DNA from: Sporanaerobacter acetigenes DSM 13106
GTDB taxonomy: Bacteria; Bacillota; Clostridia; Tissierellales; Sporanaerobacteraceae
Direction of reading: 5' to 3'
DNA length: 24,000 nucleotides
Assembly: GCF_900130025.1 (NCBI RefSeq)
Contig: NZ_FQXR01000020.1
Span: forward strand, 12,331-36,330
Position 1 is the first letter of the stretch. Each line of letters begins with the position of its first letter. This document shows, piece after piece, positions 11,774 to 24,000 of the stretch. The notes beneath the pieces are model-generated. The model searched no databases. It had not been told where the DNA came from and saw nothing but the letters and a program-made list of their open reading frames with translations. Position numbers and translations under genes: made by a program.

Positions 11774-13240
11774 ATGGAAAGAGTAAGAAAATTTGAAAGT
11801 GATGTTCAATTGATCAAATATGAAGTATTGAGAGAAGTAGCAAAATTAGCAATGGAAGGTACACTTGAAGAAAAAAAAGATGATATTCAATATGTAATAG
11901 ATCCAGGACCAGAACCACGTACTAGATGTTGCATTTATAAAGAAAGGGAAATAACAAAAGAAAGAGTTAAATTGGCTATGGGTGGGGATAAGGATATAAA
12001 AGGCATTGTAGAAGTATTAGAAGTTGCATGTGATAAGTGTCCTCTAAATAGGTTTTTTGTGACAGAAGCTTGTAGAGGATGCTTAGCTCATAGATGTTCT
12101 GAGGCTTGCCCAAGAGGGGCTATTCATCATATAAATGGCAGAGCTTATATAGATCAAGAGAAATGTATTGAATGTGGAAGATGTAAAGAGGCTTGTCCTT
12201 ACAATGCTATAGCAGATGTTATGAGACCTTGTAGAAGAGCTTGTCCTGCAGGAGCTATTTCTTTTGATGATTCTAAAAAAGCAGTTATCAATTATGAAAA
12301 ATGTATACAATGTGGTGCTTGTATTATTCAATGTCCTTTTGGAGCAATAATGGATAAGTCTTTTATAGTAGATGTAATTGAACTTCTAAAAGAAACTAAA
12401 AAAAATGATGATATTCATGTTTATGCTGCTATAGCACCAGCTATATCTAGTCAATTTACCTATGCAAAGATAGAGCAAGTAGTTTGCGGAATTAAGAAAT
12501 TAGGTTTCCATGACGTAGTTGAAGTGGCATTAGGTGCAGATATGGTAGGACTTCATGAAGCCAAAGAATTTGCTGAAACTGTAGAGGAAAAGGGAATAGT
12601 TACCACATCGTGTTGTCCAGCATTTGTTTCTTATATAAAGAAAAATTATCCTGAATTGGAGGATAAAATTTCAAATACAGTTTCACCTATGATTGCTATA
12701 TCAAGACTCATAAAACATATTGATCCTAAGGCTAAAATAGTTTTCATAGGGCCTTGCGTAGCTAAAAAAGGTGAAATAATGGAAGAAGAATTAAAAGGTG
12801 ATACAGATTATGTATTAACTTTTGAAGAATTAGCTGCTATGCTTGATGCTGCAGAAATTGATTTGGAAAATTGTAATGACGGAGAATTAAACAATGCTTC
12901 ATACTATGGAAGAATATTTGCGAGAAGTGGTGGAGTGACAGAAGCAGTAGCACATACAATTGAATCAAAGGGCATAGATACTGACTTTAGGCCAGTTAAA
13001 TGTGATGGTATAAAAGAATGTGACAAGGCACTTAAGATGGCCAAAGTAAATAGATTGAATGGAAACTTTATTGAAGGAATGGCTTGTGTTGGAGGATGTA
13101 TTGCAGGACCTGCAAGCTTACATCATGGGCCAAAAGATAAAAATGAAGTAGATAAATACGGAAAACTTGCTATTGAAGAAGATATAAATAGTTCTTTAAG
13201 AATATTTGAAGTTCAAGATATAAATTTAGATAGAAAATAA
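11774..13240 (+). CDS. [FeFe]-hydrogenase, catalytic-type H-domain with multiple 4Fe-4S motifs (HfsD-like, group B-like)
   Basis: CIECGRCKEACP, CIQCGACIIQCP and additional Cys motifs. H-cluster motifs TTSCCPAF, GPCVAKKGE and EGMACVGGCIAGP retain the Cys-Cys and Met positions. Confidence 0.85.
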   Translation: MERVRKFESDVQLIKYEVLREVAKLAMEGTLEEKKDDIQYVIDPGPEPRTRCCIYKEREITKERVKLAMGGDKDIKGIVEVLEVACDKCPLNRFFVTEACRGCLAHRCSEACPRGAIHHINGRAYIDQEKCIECGRCKEACPYNAIADVMRPCRRACPAGAISFDDSKKAVINYEKCIQCGACIIQCPFGAIMDKSFIVDVIELLKETKKNDDIHVYAAIAPAISSQFTYAKIEQVVCGIKKLGFHDVVEVALGADMVGLHEAKEFAETVEEKGIVTTSCCPAFVSYIKKNYPELEDKISNTVSPMIAISRLIKHIDPKAKIVFIGPCVAKKGEIMEEELKGDTDYVLTFEELAAMLDAAEIDLENCNDGELNNASYYGRIFARSGGVTEAVAHTIESKGIDTDFRPVKCDGIKECDKALKMAKVNRLNGNFIEGMACVGGCIAGPASLHHGPKDKNEVDKYGKLAIEEDINSSLRIFEVQDINLDRK

Positions 13241-13294
13241 TTATTTATATATATCTTTTAATTTATAGTTAAATTTGACATTTTAGTGTATAAT

Positions 13295-13362
13295 AAAGCC
13301 AAGATGCCGAACTGCCATTTTCTAAATTATAGGTTTGACAGTTCGGGTCTTTAGGTTTTTTT
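13295..13362 (+). terminator. long imperfect hairpin plus T-run; probable terminator of the hydrogenase operon
   Basis: Core CCGAACTG (13307-13314)/CAGTTCGG (13339-13346), extended by AAGA/TCTT and CC/GG. The T-run at 13356-13362 pairs back to AAA 13295-13297. The 24-nt loop is atypically large. Confidence 0.45.
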
Positions 13363-13465
13363 ATCTATCTAGCAATTTTTATAAAACACCTTTAATTCTA
13401 ATTGGTTATAAAAAACCCTTTAAGGGTAAAAATATAAATAATATATAGGAAGGAGTTGGTTTTAA

Positions 13466-14557
13466 ATGGAAACAAAAAAAACCCCACTATATGATGAACA
13501 TGTAAAACTTGGTGGTAAGATTGTTGATTATGCAGGATGGTTTCTTCCTGTGCAATATGAAGGAATTTTGGCTGAACATGAAGCAGTAAGAACTAAAGCA
13601 GGAATGTTTGATGTGTCTCATATGGGTGAAGTAATGGTTAGAGGAAAAGAAGCTTTAAACTATTTACAATATTTATTGACAAATGATATTGGGGTATTAG
13701 AAAACAACCAAGTAGTATATACCTTTATGTGCTATCCTGATGGTGGTGTAGTAGATGATTTATTAACATATAAAATTAATGATGAAGAATTTTTATTGGT
13801 TATTAATGCATCAAATGTAGATAAGGATTTTAAATGGATGCAAGATAATGTAAAAGATTTTGACGTAGTAGCAGAAAACATATCTGATGAAGTTGGGGAA
13901 GTTGCACTTCAAGGACCAAATGCTGAAAAGATACTTTCTAAATTGACAGATGAAAATCTTTCTGATATCAAATTTTTCCATTTCAAAAAAGATATAATTG
14001 TAGCTGGTACTAAATGTTTAGTTTCAAGAACTGGATATACAGGTGAAGATGGATTTGAAATTTACACATCAAGAGAAGGAATTGTAAAAGTTTGGAATAG
14101 CATATTAGAAGCTGGAGAAGAATATGGAATTAAACCAACTGGACTAGGATGTAGAGATACTTTAAGATTTGAAGCAGGACTTCCACTTTATGGTCATGAA
14201 ATATCTCAAGATATATCTCCAATACAAGGAGGATTTAAATTCTTCGTAAAACTTGACAAAGATGACTTTATAGGAAAAGATGCATTGGTTTTACAAAATG
14301 AGAACCTTACAAAAAAAGTAGTAGGATTTGAATTGTTAGGGAAAGGTATTCCAAGAGAAGGATATGATGTAGTTGTAGATGGGGAAAAGATTGGATATGT
14401 AGCAACAGGATATTTTGCTCCAACTCTAAAGAAAAACATAGGGACAGCTCTAGTAGATATTGAATATTCGAAAAAAGGAACTGAATTTGAAGTTATGATA
14501 AGAAACAAACCTGTTAAAGCTCAAGTAATAGATAAAAGATTTTATAAAAGAAAATAA
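13466..14557 (+). CDS. gcvT: glycine cleavage system aminomethyltransferase (T protein)
   Basis: TPLYDEHVKLGGKIVDYAGWFLPVQY...AGMFDVSHMGE...RDTLRFEAGLPLYGHE is canonical GcvT. Confidence 0.96.
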   Translation: METKKTPLYDEHVKLGGKIVDYAGWFLPVQYEGILAEHEAVRTKAGMFDVSHMGEVMVRGKEALNYLQYLLTNDIGVLENNQVVYTFMCYPDGGVVDDLLTYKINDEEFLLVINASNVDKDFKWMQDNVKDFDVVAENISDEVGEVALQGPNAEKILSKLTDENLSDIKFFHFKKDIIVAGTKCLVSRTGYTGEDGFEIYTSREGIVKVWNSILEAGEEYGIKPTGLGCRDTLRFEAGLPLYGHEISQDISPIQGGFKFFVKLDKDDFIGKDALVLQNENLTKKVVGFELLGKGIPREGYDVVVDGEKIGYVATGYFAPTLKKNIGTALVDIEYSKKGTEFEVMIRNKPVKAQVIDKRFYKRK

Positions 14558-19286: not shown

Positions 19287-19913
19287 ATGGATAAGAAGAT
19301 AATGATAGTTATATCAATAATCTTTTTCATCATTTTTTTGAGTCTGGCTTTTTCAATAAAGGATGTTGATAAAGGTGTATTATTTGATGAAAGCATAATG
19401 GAATGGATTCATAAAAATATAAATTCTAATATGACTATAGTCATGAAGGGAATTACATTTTTAGGCTCTACATATTTTTTTATGATAGCAGGAGCATTGA
19501 TTTTATTCTATTTTATTAAAACAAAACACTATGAGGGAATATTTCCACTATTATTTTCAACTATAGGAAGTTTTTCTTTAAATGCTATTTTAAAACATAT
19601 ATTCACAAGAACAAGACCTATTGAATATTTTCTTATACATCAAGGAGGATATAGTTTTCCCAGTGGGCACGCTATGGTTTCTATGTCTTTTTATACAACT
19701 ATGACTTACTTAATTGTAAAAAACAAAAAATATAAAAATAAAAATTATTTATTTTGGATACTAAACTTTTTAATAGTAGGACTTATTGGCTTTAGTAGAA
19801 CATATTTAGGAGTCCACTGGCCTACAGATGTATTGGGGGGATATATGATGGGATTTTTAGTGTGCTTTTTTACTATCTTTTTATTTAGCCATAAAAAGAA
19901 AGAGGGATTTTGA
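19287..19913 (+). CDS. PAP2-family membrane phosphatase (undecaprenyl-diphosphatase / lipid phosphatase-like)
   Basis: Three PAP2 motifs: KHIFTRTRP, PSGH and SRTYLGVHWPTD. Polytopic membrane protein with GGAGGGG RBS. Confidence 0.85.
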   Translation: MDKKIMIVISIIFFIIFLSLAFSIKDVDKGVLFDESIMEWIHKNINSNMTIVMKGITFLGSTYFFMIAGALILFYFIKTKHYEGIFPLLFSTIGSFSLNAILKHIFTRTRPIEYFLIHQGGYSFPSGHAMVSMSFYTTMTYLIVKNKKYKNKNYLFWILNFLIVGLIGFSRTYLGVHWPTDVLGGYMMGFLVCFFTIFLFSHKKKEGF

Positions 19914-19923
19914 TTATCCCTCT
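19893..19923 (-). terminator. hairpin shared by the two convergent gene ends; probable terminator for the minus-strand ABC operon
   Basis: AGAGGGAT (19901-19908)/ATCCCTCT (19916-19923), 8 bp perfect with a 7-nt loop. On the minus strand it is followed by TTCTTTTTAT. It covers both stop codons (TGA 19911-19913, TAG complement 19922-19924). Confidence 0.5.
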
Positions 19924-21769
19924 AGTTGAGTATTTCTCTTTCTTGTTCCCTTATGAATTGATTTGTATACAATCTATAATAGTATCCTTTCTTGTTCAAT
20001 AACTCATGGTGAGTCCCTACTTCTATTACTTGACCTTTTTTTATAACTAGAATCTTATCAGCATTTTTTATGGTAGATAATCTATGAGCTATGATGAAAC
20101 TAGTTCTTCCTTTTAGTACCTTGTGGATTGTATCTTGTATTATCTTTTCTGTTTCTGTATCTATAGATGAAGTTGCCTCATCAAGTACAAATATTTTAGG
20201 ATTTCTTAAAACTGCTCTTGCAAAGGATATAAGTTGCTTTTGACCTGTTGATAAAAGGTTTCCACCTTCTCCTACTTCTGTATCATATCCATCATGAAGT
20301 TCAACAATGAAATCATGAGCATTTACAAGTTTGCTAGCTCTAATGATATCCAGTTCACTGGCTTCAAGGTTTCCGTACTTTATATTGTCTTTAATAGTAC
20401 CACTGAAAAGATGAGGAGATTGAAGTACATAACCTAAGTTTTCATGAAGCCATACTTGAGGTCTTTTTTTATAGTCAACGCCATCTATGAGAATTTCTCC
20501 TTTAGTTGGTTCATAAAATCTACAGAGAAGGTTCACAATAGTACTTTTTCCTGAACCTGTTTCTCCCACCAATGCTATAGTTTCTCCAGGATTTACATGA
20601 AGATTAAAGTTTTCAAGGACTTCTTCTCCATTTTTATATGAAAAAGATACATTTTTGAATTCAATTTCTCCATTGATACTAGGCCAATCTTCTTTTTTGG
20701 GATTCATAAAGTCTCCGTATTTTTCTATAACTTCTATACTATCTTCAATTTCTAAATCTTCATTTATAAGAGAAAATACTCTTTCGGCAGAAGCTTGAGC
20801 CGATTGAAGTTCAGCAAATATAGCAGCTAATTCTCTTACTGGTTCAAAAAACTGTATAGTATAGTTAACAAATATAACAAGAGTTCCATAACTTAATGTA
20901 TTTGAAAGAACACTTTTTCCTCCAAAATTTAGGGCAAGGGAGGTACCGATACTTCCTAAAAGAAGAATTATAGGTAAATACAATGAAGATATAATCACTG
21001 CCTTTACAGAACTATCTCTCATTTCTCCTGTTAAATTTGTGAATTCTTCTAAATTTTGTTCTTCTCTTACAAGAGTTTTAGTAGTCTTTGCTCCAGAAAT
21101 GTCCTCGTTGAAAGCACCAGTTATTCTTGAGTTTATCTTTCTTACCTTTCTATAGGCAGTAAGTATTTTTTGCTGAAAATAAACACTGATTATAGCCAAA
21201 GGTGGTATTACAGAAAGAGTTATAAGTGCAAGCTTCACATTTAGGGAAAACATGATGACTATTATAGTTATCATCATAGTTACGCCCCAAACAAAATCCA
21301 CCAACCCCCAAGATAGAGTTTCACTGAGTCTATTTATATCGGAAGTCATTCTTGCCATTAACCATCCTACTGCTCTATTGTCATAATAGGATAGGGAAAG
21401 AACTTGCAATTTTTCAAATCCTATCTTTCTTATATCATAGGCCATGCCTGTTTCTATTCTACCAGCAATAGATATGAGAAACCATGCATTTATTGCTTGA
21501 ATAAGGACTAGAAGTCCATATTTTATAGCAAAAGTTTTTAGTCCATTTGTAGTGCCTTTCATAACAAAATCGTCTATTGCTTTACCATTCATCAGTGGGA
21601 ATATAGCATCTATTGCTCCTACTCCTACCATTACTAATGCTAATATAAAAAAGTATTTTTTATATGGTTTTGCATAGACTAAAAAATTTTTCCAAAAAGA
21701 TAAATCTATTTTTTCACTGTATTCCTTTTCTTGCATATCTTCCACGATGTCACCCCCATTAGTTAACAC
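19922..21769 (-). CDS. ABC exporter permease/ATPase fusion, subunit with the consensus catalytic site (heterodimer partner 2)
   Basis: N-terminal 6-TM type I exporter domain. Walker A GETGSGKST, Walker B FVLDEATS (catalytic Glu present), deviant signature LSTGQKQL and H-loop AHRLST. Confidence 0.9.
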   Translation of the reverse strand: MLTNGGDIVEDMQEKEYSEKIDLSFWKNFLVYAKPYKKYFFILALVMVGVGAIDAIFPLMNGKAIDDFVMKGTTNGLKTFAIKYGLLVLIQAINAWFLISIAGRIETGMAYDIRKIGFEKLQVLSLSYYDNRAVGWLMARMTSDINRLSETLSWGLVDFVWGVTMMITIIVIMFSLNVKLALITLSVIPPLAIISVYFQQKILTAYRKVRKINSRITGAFNEDISGAKTTKTLVREEQNLEEFTNLTGEMRDSSVKAVIISSLYLPIILLLGSIGTSLALNFGGKSVLSNTLSYGTLVIFVNYTIQFFEPVRELAAIFAELQSAQASAERVFSLINEDLEIEDSIEVIEKYGDFMNPKKEDWPSINGEIEFKNVSFSYKNGEEVLENFNLHVNPGETIALVGETGSGKSTIVNLLCRFYEPTKGEILIDGVDYKKRPQVWLHENLGYVLQSPHLFSGTIKDNIKYGNLEASELDIIRASKLVNAHDFIVELHDGYDTEVGEGGNLLSTGQKQLISFARAVLRNPKIFVLDEATSSIDTETEKIIQDTIHKVLKGRTSFIIAHRLSTIKNADKILVIKKGQVIEVGTHHELLNKKGYYYRLYTNQFIREQEREILN

Positions 21770-23561
21770 TTACATTTTCCAAATTGTCTTCAAGGGAATT
21801 TTGTATTTCATATACCCTTTTATATAAACCTTCTTTTTTTAATAGTTCTTCGTGATTTCCTCTTTGTACTATTTTCCCTTTATCTAATACAAGAATCAAA
21901 TCTGCCTCTTTTACAGTAGAAATTCTGTGAGAAATAATTATAGTAGTAGATTTGTTTTTTCTTCCATTTAGAGCTTCTCTTATAGAAATATCAGTTTCAG
22001 TATCTACAGCACTTAGTGAATCATCAAATACAACAATAGGGCATTCATTTATTATGGTTCTTGCAATTGCTATACGTTGTTTTTGACCTCCTGACAATGA
22101 CACACCTCTTTCTCCAACGGCTGTATCATATCCTTTGTCAAAACACATGATATCTTCATGAATACTAGCTATTTCAGCAGCATCTAGTACCTTTTTATCT
22201 TCTATATTTGGATTTGAAATTTTTATATTTTCTTTTATGGTTTTAGCAAACAGAAAAGGTTCCTGTAGTACTAATCCTACATTTTTTCTAATCCACTTTT
22301 TATCAATAGTATTTAATTCTCTTCCATCTATTTTTATAGAGCCATTATTATATTCATAAAGTCTTGGAAGAAGATGAACTAATGAGCTTTTTCCAGAACC
22401 AGTAGGCCCTAGTATAGCAACAGTTTCACCAGCGTTTATATCAAAAGAGACTCCATTTAATACAGGTTTCTCCTTTTCATATTCAAAACACACATTCTCA
22501 AAGGAAACATTTCCTTGTATTTCAGGTTTTTCATGATTTTCTTCAAGTATTTCCATAGGTTCATTCAAAACTTCTTCTATACGACCTACAGCAACTATAG
22601 ATTTTCCCATATCTGTAAGTATTCTTCCCATTTGTCTTACAGGCCATAAAAGCATACCTTCATAAGTTGTGAATACCACCAATGTACCTAAAGATATGTG
22701 ACCTTTTGCTGCCCACAAGCTACCTAGAACCAATACAGCACCTATTTGCATCATACAGATAAAGTCTGAAATAGCCCAATACCACGCCAATAGCTTAATT
22801 AATTTATAAACCAGATCTTTATATTTTTCATTTTTTTCATTAAATTTTTCAATTTCATACTTTTGTCTTGCAAAAGCTTTAACTACTCTTATACCTGTTA
22901 AGTTTTCTTGTAGTACTGTAGAAAGTTTACCTTCAGCTTCATCAGCCTCTAAAAAAACTTTCTGAACTTTTGAGAAAAAAACAAAAGCAAATATAAATAT
23001 TATAGGTACTACAGCCATAGAAACTAGAGCCATTTTTACATTGAGATTGAACATTATATAAGAAACAAAAACCAAAGTAAAAATTGCACCACCTATTTCC
23101 ACCAATTGAACTGCTAAAAATCGCCTTATAGTTTCTACATCTGAGCTACATCTTTGAATCAAATCTCCTGTATCTGCTTTCACATGATATTCATAAGGTA
23201 ATCTTTGTATATGATCATATAATTGCTCTCTCATATTTTTGGCAGTGTTTTCAGAAGCTTTACTTGACAGTGTATTTTTCAAATAAAGAAATAAACCTCT
23301 AAAAATAGTTAAAATTATGAGTGCTATACCTATAATCCATAGATTGTTTCTTAAATACTCTTTACCTCCTAAAAAATTTATAGTTTTAATCATCCTAATA
23401 GAACTTATTTCTTTGCTTCCAATAATAGAGTCAATAGTAGTTTTCACTAAAAGAGGGCCTATTACTGTAAAAAATGTAGCAAGGACGATACTTACAATAC
23501 TCATTGCATAAATAAATTTGCTACCTTTCATGAACTTAAAAATCGATTTTAATCCTTTCAT
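21759..23561 (-). CDS. ABC exporter permease/ATPase fusion, subunit with degenerate Walker B (heterodimer partner 1)
   Basis: Start moved to ATG 23561 (MKGLKSIFKFMKG...), 5 nt after AGGAGGG (23573-23567). Walker A GPTGSGKSS, canonical signature LSGGQKQR and Walker B VVFDDSLS (Asp replaces the catalytic Glu). 11-nt overlap with the downstream partner. Confidence 0.9.
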   Translation of the reverse strand: MKGLKSIFKFMKGSKFIYAMSIVSIVLATFFTVIGPLLVKTTIDSIIGSKEISSIRMIKTINFLGGKEYLRNNLWIIGIALIILTIFRGLFLYLKNTLSSKASENTAKNMREQLYDHIQRLPYEYHVKADTGDLIQRCSSDVETIRRFLAVQLVEIGGAIFTLVFVSYIMFNLNVKMALVSMAVVPIIFIFAFVFFSKVQKVFLEADEAEGKLSTVLQENLTGIRVVKAFARQKYEIEKFNEKNEKYKDLVYKLIKLLAWYWAISDFICMMQIGAVLVLGSLWAAKGHISLGTLVVFTTYEGMLLWPVRQMGRILTDMGKSIVAVGRIEEVLNEPMEILEENHEKPEIQGNVSFENVCFEYEKEKPVLNGVSFDINAGETVAILGPTGSGKSSLVHLLPRLYEYNNGSIKIDGRELNTIDKKWIRKNVGLVLQEPFLFAKTIKENIKISNPNIEDKKVLDAAEIASIHEDIMCFDKGYDTAVGERGVSLSGGQKQRIAIARTIINECPIVVFDDSLSAVDTETDISIREALNGRKNKSTTIIISHRISTVKEADLILVLDKGKIVQRGNHEELLKKEGLYKRVYEIQNSLEDNLENVSVN

Positions 23562-23576
23562 TCTATCCCTCCTGTC

Positions 23577-23630
23577 AAAAACAAAATAGCCATGGGCTAT
23601 TGAAATAAAAAATACTATGCCCATGGCTAT
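23577..23630 (-). terminator. terminator-like hairpin T2 immediately upstream of the ABC exporter RBS
   Basis: Minus-strand ATAGCCATGGGC (23630-23619) pairs perfectly (12 bp) with GCCCATGGCTAT (23597-23586). 21-nt loop and tail TTTGTTTTT (23585-23577). Confidence 0.6.
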
Positions 23631-23688
23631 AAATATGCAAAACTCACCAATATCTGTTTTGGTAAAAATAAACAGTATAGAATTGCAT

Positions 23689-23722
23689 AAAAAAACCATA
23701 GGCAACCACACCTATGGTTTTT
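23689..23722 (-). terminator. terminator hairpin T1 downstream of the leader sORF
   Basis: Minus-strand AAAAACCATAGG (23722-23711), loop TGTGGTTG, CCTATGGTTTTT (23702-23691), with the T-run continuing to 23689 (U7). Confidence 0.7.
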
Positions 23723-23749
23723 GATATTTCTAGTAAATTATGTATTTAA

Positions 23750-23827
23750 TCAAAAACGATCATAGGTCGTGGATTTACATTTCGAACTTAAATTTTCTTT
23801 GATTAGTATACTGCACATTATTATCAT
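23750..23827 (-). CDS. 25-codon small ORF, candidate regulatory leader peptide of the ABC exporter operon
   Basis: AAAGGAGG (23843-23836) lies 8 nt before ATG 23827. Product MIIMCSILIKENLSSKCKSTTYDRF, stop TGA 23752-23750. The last codons are complementary to the 5' arm of T1. No homology is claimed. Confidence 0.45.
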   Translation of the reverse strand: MIIMCSILIKENLSSKCKSTTYDRF

Positions 23828-23862
23828 CAACACGACCTCCTTTATTATTTAGTATATCTATA

Positions 23863-23891
23863 AGTATATTCACATTTTTGGTAATATTCAA
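23863..23891 (-). promoter_or_regulatory. sigma-A type promoter candidate for the sORF/ABC exporter transcript
   Basis: Minus-strand TTGAAT (23891-23886), 17-nt spacer, TATACT (23868-23863), about 20 nt upstream of the sORF RBS. Confidence 0.4.
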
Positions 23892-24000
23892 CCATTATTT
23901 TCATTTGTAACACAATTGTAATATAATAAAGTAATTATTCAAATAAAATAAGTAAATAAAAAGGATATTTATAAAAAACGTGGAATATGTTAAAAATAAG

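Follow-up and report, generated by a model that had tools for sequence, protein, structure and literature searches.

Experiments on bmrB-bmrCD of Bacillus subtilis have demonstrated ribosome-mediated attenuation of transcription at a single terminator (Reilman et al. 2014, PMC4191407). All three alternative structures of this system (terminator, antiterminator and anti-antiterminator) lie inside a leader open reading frame (ORF) of about 54 codons (nt 60-162), the ribosome on this ORF senses translation inhibitors, and an extra layer of promoter control is present (PMC4191407). Here we describe a leader found in a 24,000-nucleotide (nt) stretch of the Sporanaerobacter acetigenes DSM 13106 genome (contig NZ_FQXR01000020.1, positions 12,331 to 36,330), hereafter called the window. 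A short ORF and a chain of hairpins occupy the 330 bases 5' of a two-gene ATP-binding cassette (ABC) exporter, and the design recurs in many Clostridia. We consider this leader to be, quite probably, a ribosome-mediated (leader-peptide) transcription attenuator, in which six RNA segments pair in either of two registers and a shift of register is relayed through two successive terminators. An earlier sequence-only reading of the window had compared it with bmrB-bmrCD. The comparison holds for the attenuation logic, without the bmrB layout or close BmrCD orthology. As in bmrB-bmrCD, a leader ORF precedes a heterodimeric, asymmetric ABC exporter of the multidrug type, and terminator, antiterminator and anti-antiterminator structures are alternatives. 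In contrast to bmrB, the window has a 25-codon short ORF (sORF) ending before the terminators, two terminators in series, and an anti-antiterminator involving the Shine-Dalgarno (SD) sequence. The match of the ABC chains to BmrD (YheH) (E-value ~1e-95 versus 1e-122) ranks below those to TM288, TmrA/B, EfrCD-like chains and Sav1866, and the 60 best PDB matches listed for chain 1 do not include BmrC (YheI). Judged by these matches, the operon is not an orthologue of bmrB-bmrCD: the two belong to the same broad exporter class and are only distant relatives.

The trp attenuator consists of a 1:2 protector/pause hairpin, a 2:3 antiterminator and a 3:4 terminator. The window leader resembles Escherichia coli trpL in its chain of overlapping segments, whose register would be picked by the position of the ribosome on the leader ORF, and in the termination expected without translation. 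However, trpL has four segments, one terminator and charged-tRNA sensing at regulatory codons, whereas the window leader has six segments, two terminators, no run of regulatory codons and a protector helix that includes the SD. The leader of the erm(K) gene is said to adopt two mutually exclusive global conformations and to yield two truncated transcripts. As far as described in a paper citing the original work, erm(K) of Bacillus licheniformis is controlled by leader-peptide attenuation with two adjacent rho-independent terminators (PMC4335068, citing Kwak, Choi & Weisblum 1991). On the same partial account, erm(K)/erm(D) and the window share two serial rho-independent terminators in one leader under one leader peptide, but the erm genes encode an rRNA methylase, not an exporter, and have a 14-codon leader with another peptide. 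The sequence-only reading knew of no described double-terminator relay. This stands in part: a two-terminator leader is known in erm(K), while our literature search, in which erm(K) was compared through the citing paper alone, found no description of a two-terminator 3:4 relay for ABC exporters. Premature intrinsic termination in the 5' leader, relieved by ribosome stalling, is also the principle at the antibiotic-resistance (ARE) ABC-F genes vmlR, msrD/msrDL and lmo0919 and at patAB, which likewise encodes a heterodimeric ABC exporter and has a terminator in its leader (PMC4319486). RNA polymerase pausing is needed for such leaders in Firmicutes (PMC9226507, PMC10314930). They differ from the window in having a single terminator and other, usually shorter, upstream ORFs, and they show no sequence or Rfam relationship to it. 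The window leader thus appears to represent an attenuator family that is conserved and unannotated, with a register shift chained through two terminators; its general logic is already known from bmrB-bmrCD and trp.

All leader features are read on the minus strand and numbered along the 24-kb window. The promoter, SD, sORF, terminators T1 and T2, and ribosome-binding site (RBS) of the exporter were all found on this strand at the places given by the sequence-only reading. The sigma-A-type promoter (23863-23891) consists of TTGAAT (23891-23886), a 17-nt spacer and TATACT (23868-23863). A promoter scan lists it as well, but hexamer matches overall are at chance level in this AT-rich DNA (27 found, 25 expected), and the promoter call therefore rests on conservation: a -35/-10 pair, mostly TTGAAT/TTGTAT with TATAAT, occurs at the equivalent position in all relatives. 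The SD AAAGGAGG (23836-23843) lies 8 nt 5' of the start codon of the sORF (23750-23827; ATG 23827, TGA 23752-23750), which encodes the 25 residues MIIMCSILIKENLSSKCKSTTYDRF and ends 27 nt before the 5' arm of T1. The leader thereby contains a leader ORF with an SD, an intrinsic terminator before the structural gene, and an antiterminator strand that a ribosome can mask, as expected of an attenuator. The minimum free energy (MFE) of the 297-nt leader is -71.7 kcal/mol (the unit of all energies below), against -55.4 +/- 4.9 for dinucleotide shuffles; none of 200 shuffles folded as well (z = -3.3). Rfam searches gave no match at the gathering score in the leader, in the whole window or in six related loci, and a permissive threshold added chance-level matches only (E >= 1). 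As no covariance model matches, the leader does not belong to a known Rfam cis-regulatory RNA such as a riboswitch, T-box or protein-binding leader.

For comparison we assembled about 20 non-redundant leaders located 5' of orthologous ABC genes (64-97% ABC protein identity) from Sporanaerobacter, Anaerosalibacter, Tissierella, Tepidimicrobium, Keratinibaculum, 'Clostridium' Cult2/3 and metagenome-assembled genomes (MAGs). They were collected through genome and metagenome scans and homologue look-ups; the latter gave most of the extra diversity, and the metagenome scan contributed just three close leaders. All compared loci are ABC-linked. The nearest genome is a Sporanaerobacter MAG (96% protein identity). 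The sequence words of the Tissierellales leaders, searched as motifs over 179 loci, occur solely in orthologous leaders; the wider leader family is recognized by its architecture, not by such words. The promoter, SD, sORF, T1 and T2 are kept throughout the roughly 20 orthologous leaders, apart from one (L167) with a single terminator, as conservation of the leader postulated from the window alone would require. T1 is built of CCAUAGG...CCUAUGG plus a U-run in the orthologues, and T2 lies directly 5' of the RBS.

The sORF is the first element for which conservation is informative. Its SD, start and stop position are retained in all the orthologous leaders fetched, and it is open in one frame alone, in line with its earlier designation as a leader ORF. 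The SD has the form AGGAGGUCGUG in the orthologous leaders, and its AGGAGGUC is unchanged in 16/16 aligned leaders. The length of the sORF varies between 23 and 33 codons. In 14 leaders the frame set by the SD spacing is open over 25-45 codons, whereas the +1 and +2 frames contain 4-9 and 0-6 stops; shuffled leader regions keep such an ORF in 3-10% of the trials per leader (0.03-0.10). The stop codon ends 11-15 nt past the core of segment 1, ACCU(A/G)UG, in 13/13 Tissierellales leaders, so that a terminating ribosome would cover segment 1. The peptide itself is poorly conserved apart from a K-E-N motif (see below), and its C-terminal part is frame-shifted between lineages. Owing to a 1-nt indel, translation of the block CACGACCU gives ..S-T-T-Y.. 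in the lineage of the window and ..R-P-(M/V).. elsewhere. As the block is conserved though its frame differs, it is constrained as RNA, not as peptide.

This block belongs to segment 1, CCACGACCUAUGAUCGUUUUUGAU (23749-23772), for which two partners compete. In the helix AT1, segment 1 pairs as the 5' strand with segment 2, AUCAAAAACCAUAGGUGUGG (23706-23725), which comprises the 5' arm and loop start of T1: CCAC-G-ACCUAUG-AUC-GUUUUUGAU (23772-23749) pairs with AUCAAAAAC-CAUAGGU-GUGG (23725-23706) over 4+7+9 = 20 base pairs (bp). The AT1 hairpin has a free energy of -20.4, against -14.3 to -16.7 for T1, and the duplex has a z-score of -6.6 relative to dinucleotide shuffles. T1 itself is formed by CAAAAACCAUAGG (23723-23711), a loop, CCUAUGGUUUUU (23702-23691) and a U-run to 23689, with a U7 tract. 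The pairing of segments 1 and 2 had been proposed as 7+7 bp with a 3-nt bulge; it is real and stronger than estimated. Nascent RNA folds into AT1 before segment 3 is made. When the RNA is masked to 14 nt past the P-site, a ribosome at codon 6, 9 or 12 leaves AT1 intact, whereas with the P-site at codon 15 AT1 erodes and with the ribosome on the stop codon T1 alone forms. Across all 13 lineages AT1 has an energy of -13 to -22, computed with segment 2 extended into the T1 loop (with the loop excluded, AT1 is weak in several lineages); it is at least as strong as T1 in most and weaker in L161, L171, L175 and L005. The conserved start of the T1 loop, G(Y)GUG, is accounted for by pairing with CACG of segment 1 in AT1, the sole explanation we can offer.

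The other partner of segment 1 is segment 0, AGGUCGUG (23831-23838), which overlaps the 3' half of the SD. It forms the 5' arm of the helix P0, AGGUCGUG (23838-23831) with CACGACCU (23771-23764), which is present in the full-length MFE fold. P0 competes with AT1 for the same strand and is therefore an anti-antiterminator. For this role the sequence-only reading had put forward an AU-rich pairing of AAUCAAA with UUUGAUU (23804-23798 with 23754-23748). That pairing occurs in no computed fold and is not kept in relatives (AAUUAAA in L082 and L002). On the evidence of folding and conservation, P0 is the helix that takes its place. It corresponds to the 1:2 hairpin of trp and to the anti-antiterminator predicted for bmrB (PMC4191407).

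The second stage repeats this competition. T2 is a perfect 12-bp stem, AUAGCCAUGGGC (23630-23619) with GCCCAUGGCUAU (23597-23586), closed by a 21-nt loop (energy -20.2). It is followed by the tail UUUGUUUUU (23585-23577), then GAC and then AGGAGGG. Segment 4, GCAUAUUUAUAGCCAUGGGC (23619-23638), provides the 5' arm of T2 (23630-23619), and segment 5, GCCCAUGGCUAU with the tail UUUGUUUUU (23577-23597), its 3' arm and U-tract. T1 and T2 are about 110 nt apart, with neither ORF nor promoter in between; a spacer hairpin (23639-23684) folds there and would be enclosed by AT2 in the ON state, and relatives have one of different sequence. AT2 is the pairing of segment 3, GCCUAUGGUUUUUUUAUGC (23685-23703), which holds the 3' arm and U-tract of T1, with segment 4: GCCUAUGGUU (23703-23694) pairs with AGCCAUGGGC (23628-23619) and UAUGC (23689-23685) with GCAUA (23638-23634). 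The 3:4 pairing, previously given as 8 bp, or about 11 with flanks, is thus real and stronger than estimated, with 10+5 bp. The AT2 duplex has an energy of -20.0, equal to T2, and 0.2-0.6% of shuffles are as good. For RNA running from segment 3 through the T2 tail, the fold of lowest energy is the one with AT2 (-36.4, against -32.0 when segment 3 is unavailable), and AT2 formed in every case tested before segment 5 is transcribed. In other leaders AT2 either is the MFE structure (L175, L006, L070) or forms first and is then overtaken by T2 (L003, L169, L083, L017). An antiterminator that forms first and is later overtaken by the terminator is the usual kinetic situation. Both antiterminator helices, 1:2 and 3:4, are thus competitive with the terminators, which was the energetic check on the proposal. 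In the same region GCCCAUGGC (23585-23601, minus strand) is palindromic, and segment 5 alone folds into a 7-bp hairpin, AAUAGCC-CAU-GGCUAUU, before the U-tract.

Helix conservation was scored on a 16-sequence alignment (A1), on which slid controls are 30-50% paired. P0 is 96% paired, the AT1 core 91%, T1 90%, T2 95% and AT2 94.4%. Two kinds of change speak to AT2 separately. In L082, a G-to-A change in segment 3 together with a C-to-U change in segment 4 keeps the AT2 pair (G-C to A-U) and weakens T2 (C-G to U.G). In L003, L004 and L164 the AT2 helix has U-A as its outermost pair, at positions that cannot pair in T1 or T2. The near-invariance of CCAUAGG/CCUAUGG is unusual for terminator stems and would be expected if each segment has two partners.

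The strongest evidence comes from leaders of unrelated sequence. Four further groups, found 5' of orthologues at 35-52% identity and unrelated to the window leader in primary sequence, have two terminators and 3:4 complementarity. The successive stems are CCACAGGC...GCCUGUGG and ACACGCAGGC...GCCUGCGUGU in Proteiniclasticum (L006/L007/L026), AGAGGUCGUGGUU...AGCCAUGGCCUUU and AAAAAGCCAUGG...CCAUGGCUUUUU in a Clostridium group (L012, L014, L017, L030), and AAACCAUGGGG...CCCAUGGUUU and GAGACUGUGG...CUACAGUCUU in L070; the terminator stems of L083 are again unrelated. The Clostridium group and L070, the two that were folded whole, show the complete P0/AT1/T1/AT2/T2 chain, with AGGUAGG paired to CCUAUCU or CCUACCU as the analogue of P0. 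In Proteiniclasticum a P0 analogue, AGGUUAC with GUAACCU, was recognized by eye. In swap matrices, segment 4 of L083 and of L006 pairs well with its own segment 3 only, except that segment 4 of L006 also pairs with the CCUGUGG-type segment 3 of L171/L178. In 10/10 leaders from the five groups, AT2 outperforms shuffles (p<0.035). As a control, 5/5 other ABC leaders with two unrelated terminator-like hairpins show no 3:4 complementarity (z ~0).

What is established here directly are the sequence elements, how well they are conserved and how the alternative helices compare in energy; that the sORF is translated, that ribosomes stall on it, what signal induces and how efficiently each terminator works are inferred. 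Conservation and energetics support the five segments first proposed, with 2:3 plus 4:5 as the OFF state and 1:2 plus 3:4 as the ON state. With segment 0 added, the OFF register would be 0:1 (P0) plus 2:3 (T1) plus 4:5 (T2), and the ON register 1:2 (AT1) plus 3:4 (AT2). Transcription would start at the conserved promoter, and a ribosome would load on the strong SD and translate the 25-codon sORF. A ribosome at the stop codon would mask segment 1, so that segments 2 and 3 pair and T1 terminates; a polymerase leaking past T1 would then meet T2, segment 4 being free for segment 5. A ribosome held within about the first 14 codons would keep P0 open and leave segment 1 free to form AT1, and T1 would be bypassed. 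Such a hold might come from a translation inhibitor, possibly aided by K-E-N at codons 10-12. The freed segment 3 would capture segment 4 before segment 5 is made, T2 would be bypassed as well, and the ABC operon would be transcribed. With no ribosome on the leader, P0 would form first, tying up part of the SD together with segment 1; T1 and T2 would then both form, and the operon would be OFF.

The K-E-N motif (codons 10-12, AAA GAA AAU, 23792-23800) is a candidate ribosome-arrest or sensing motif. A motif of the form [K/N][E/Q/K]N is found at codons 10-13 in most leaders and is absent from L164, L005, L006 and L070. Its codons show synonymous third-position changes (GAA/GAG, AAU/AAC), which suggests a constraint at the peptide level. 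The leader peptides of the Clostridium group (MLNIKFRNYKENKINKNNPISIVLYN; L012, L014, L017, L030) also have K-E-N at codons 10-12, in RNA whose sequence is unrelated to the window. K-E-N lies 16-28 nt 5' of segment 1, and the leading edge of a ribosome arrested there would stop just short of segment 1; that the position fits an arrest site is speculation. We know of no arrest peptide with a K-E-N motif. A bolder proposal, which we advance only tentatively and hold to be rather doubtful as a whole, is that of a widespread 'register-shift' attenuator family in Clostridia (Tissierellales, Clostridium sensu stricto, Proteiniclasticum and others). In it, a single K-E-N arrest about 12 residues into the peptide would be passed domino-fashion through five mutually exclusive helices and disarm two serial terminators; the K-E-N peptide would be a new arrest peptide that depends on a drug or metabolite, and terminator duplication would be the way in which the second stage, as a module, evolves.

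Several points weigh against the two-stage attenuator. The whole model is based on sequence analysis and thermodynamic prediction, and the comparison across groups uses independent folds without alignment. Within the close clade the key helices are near-invariant and covariation is sparse: AT2 has two pairs changed on both sides, and P0 has no covarying pairs. Segments 2/4 and 3/5 are near-copies in most lineages; 3:4 complementarity is therefore automatic there after duplication of a terminator and need not be selected. On nascent window RNA that has no ribosome, P0 is less stable than AT1 (-20.4), so that the OFF state in the absence of translation requires P0 to form first. The 21-nt loop of T2 in the window is unusually large. 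The mini-hairpin of segment 5 (about -6.8), seen in the terminator scan and in the AT2-state fold, could on this prediction cause residual weak termination in the ON state. The model also needs a pause, since in Firmicutes the ribosome can be left behind by RNA polymerase; the sORF stop lies at a T-rich stretch (AUUUUUUGAU in several relatives) where the polymerase might pause. Finally, the single terminator of L167 shows that the second stage is dispensable.

The L167 leader (L167:1250-1545; 72% ABC identity) has the sORF and one terminator, with the RBS right after it. Segments 3 and 5 are direct repeats, so that a stage can be gained or lost by slippage or duplication. L167 may serve as a natural single-stage control for the relay.

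The alternative that survives best is that only T1 is regulated, by the sORF and AT1, and that T2 is a fail-safe or a leftover copy with the 3:4 complementarity as a by-product. In most Tissierellales leaders T1 and T2 share one word (AACCAUAGG) as their 5' arm, as after tandem duplication, L167 manages with one terminator, and T2 is favored over AT2 once segment 5 exists in L003, L169 and L083. However, where T2 has diverged, segment 4 still fits its own segment 3 and not those of other groups (window, Clostridium, L070, L006, L083), the window group adds the 5-bp extension UAUGC with GCAUA, and the control tandem hairpins lack such complementarity. Moreover, an unregulated, efficient T2 right before the RBS would abolish induction. 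On balance, regulation of T1 alone seems unlikely, and we retain the two-stage attenuator as the probable reading.

It is much less credible that the sORF is incidental and that the switch is worked by a trans-acting factor, be it an antiterminator protein that binds the RNA, a tRNA or a small-molecule riboswitch. The repeated, conserved word CCAUAGG/CCUAUGG could in principle bind a protein. Against this stand the lack of Rfam matches, permissive thresholds included, and the fact that nearly all conserved nucleotides are explained by the alternative helices, leaving no conserved unpaired core resembling a ligand pocket. SD, start spacing, frame-specific openness and stop position are kept across groups of unrelated sequence, and arms whose spacing varies (loops of 4-27 nt) speak against a DNA operator. 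The reading of the inverted repeat CCATAGG..CCTATGG as such an operator was rejected on this spacing and on the U-tracts that follow it.

T1 was likewise considered, and ruled out, as the terminator of an upstream gene, the upstream gene being divergent in L001 and having a separate terminator in L167 and L178. The genes 5' of the leader vary: besides the divergent one in L001, genes for VanW, LigB, a flavin adenine dinucleotide (FAD) protein, TusA/Se-carrier and Crp-type proteins are found elsewhere. Given these varied or divergent neighbors and the separate terminators, T1 and T2 belong to the ABC leader. T2 adjoins the RBS, which leaves no room for a promoter 3' of T2, and the operon must be read through both terminators. 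The least tenable alternative, an independent small gene (a small protein, or a small RNA ending at T1 or T2) with the ABC operon expressed by constitutive leak or from an unrecognized promoter, can draw on the conserved K-E-N motif and on the short RNAs that attenuator leaders often accumulate, some of them first annotated as small RNAs in the literature, but it would leave the antiterminator helices purposeless and does not fit a leader that always lies directly 5' of the orthologous ABC pair despite varied neighborhoods, a T2 that adjoins the ABC RBS, or a peptide otherwise poorly conserved and frame-shifted at its C-terminus between lineages.

A second level of control of the exporter is suggested by the sequence 5' of the promoter. 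A direct repeat (A/G)TTACAA-N4-(A/G)TTACAA with an 11-bp period is located at 23905-23921 (minus strand), 13 nt 5' of the -35 hexamer. The copy in the window is ATTACAA-N4-GTTACAA (reverse complement TGTAAC-N5-TGTAAT). The repeat is found at the same place (-70/-81 from the SD) in 11/15 Tissierellales leaders; it is missing from L164, L005 and L178, and L175 has a single copy. It resembles the direct-repeat sites bound by response regulators of the OmpR/PhoB family, for example the WalR consensus TGTWAH-N5-TGTWAH. The repeat is possibly a binding site for an activator of the response-regulator type, and its position suggests promoter-level control in addition to the attenuator.

The regulated operon (19922-23561, minus strand) encodes two type-IV (ABCB-like) half-transporters of 600 and ~615 amino acids (aa), which form an asymmetric heterodimer. 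Chain 1 has the Walker-B sequence FDDS with a degenerate catalytic position, and chain 2 has the degenerate signature LSTGQ. The best bacterial structural relatives of the chains are TM287/288, TmrAB and Sav1866. The mechanical ORF of the first gene starts at GTG 23711, is 650 aa long (21759-23711, minus strand) and spans T1 and T2. The true start is likely ATG 23561, preceded by the RBS AGGAGGG (23573-23567; start region 23559-23573), from which the N-terminus MKGLKSIF aligns with orthologues from residue 1. Several database homologues (P0010, P0011, P0015, P0035 and P0109) are 611-629 aa long, not ~600, their starts being presumably over-extended into the leader. Such over-extension of the ABC ORF by gene callers is frequent and hides the element. 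The operon ends at a terminator at 19923-19901, 3' of the ABC genes. A PAP2-family phosphatase gene (19287-19923), which weakly matches undecaprenyl-diphosphatase models, is convergent with the operon and shares this intergenic terminator hairpin with it. The remaining window is housekeeping (a glycine-cleavage operon, lpd and the PAP2 phosphatase). The glycine riboswitch is common 5' of gcv operons in Firmicutes; the region 13240-13466, 5' of gcvT-gcvH-gcvPA-gcvPB-lpd, matches no Rfam family at the gathering score, the glycine riboswitch included.

Two groups of relatives show peculiarities of their own. In Keratinibaculum paraultunense (L173 and L174; 1440-1560, 3212-4198), the leader and both terminators are intact, the RBS and about the first 30 codons of ABC gene 1 are missing, and ABC gene 2 is truncated to the membrane domain (321-328 aa); from these sequences the ABC operon appears to be decaying. 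In L012, L014, L017 and L030 of the Clostridium group, a second short ORF with its own strong SD follows T2 and precedes the ABC start (about -85 to -20), just 5' of the ABC RBS. An example is AAAGGAGGTAAAACT-ATG GAA AAT GGA GAT TTA AAA AGT GGA TGA, encoding MENGDLKSG. The window does not have this ORF, which by its position may constitute an extra layer of translational control in the Clostridium group.

The exporter class to which the operon belongs includes multidrug pumps, and induction is known for very few of them. If the model is true, the arrangement would provide a very tight OFF state, in which the leak is the product of two read-throughs, and a full ON state from one decision. Two terminators under one sensor would make a compact natural switch of low leak and high gain, useful for studies of co-transcriptional folding and for synthetic biology, and the K-E-N motif provides a concrete candidate for a new arrest peptide. 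A leader coupling transcription of the exporter to the state of the ribosome would indicate intrinsic, inducible efflux in anaerobic digester and gut Firmicutes.

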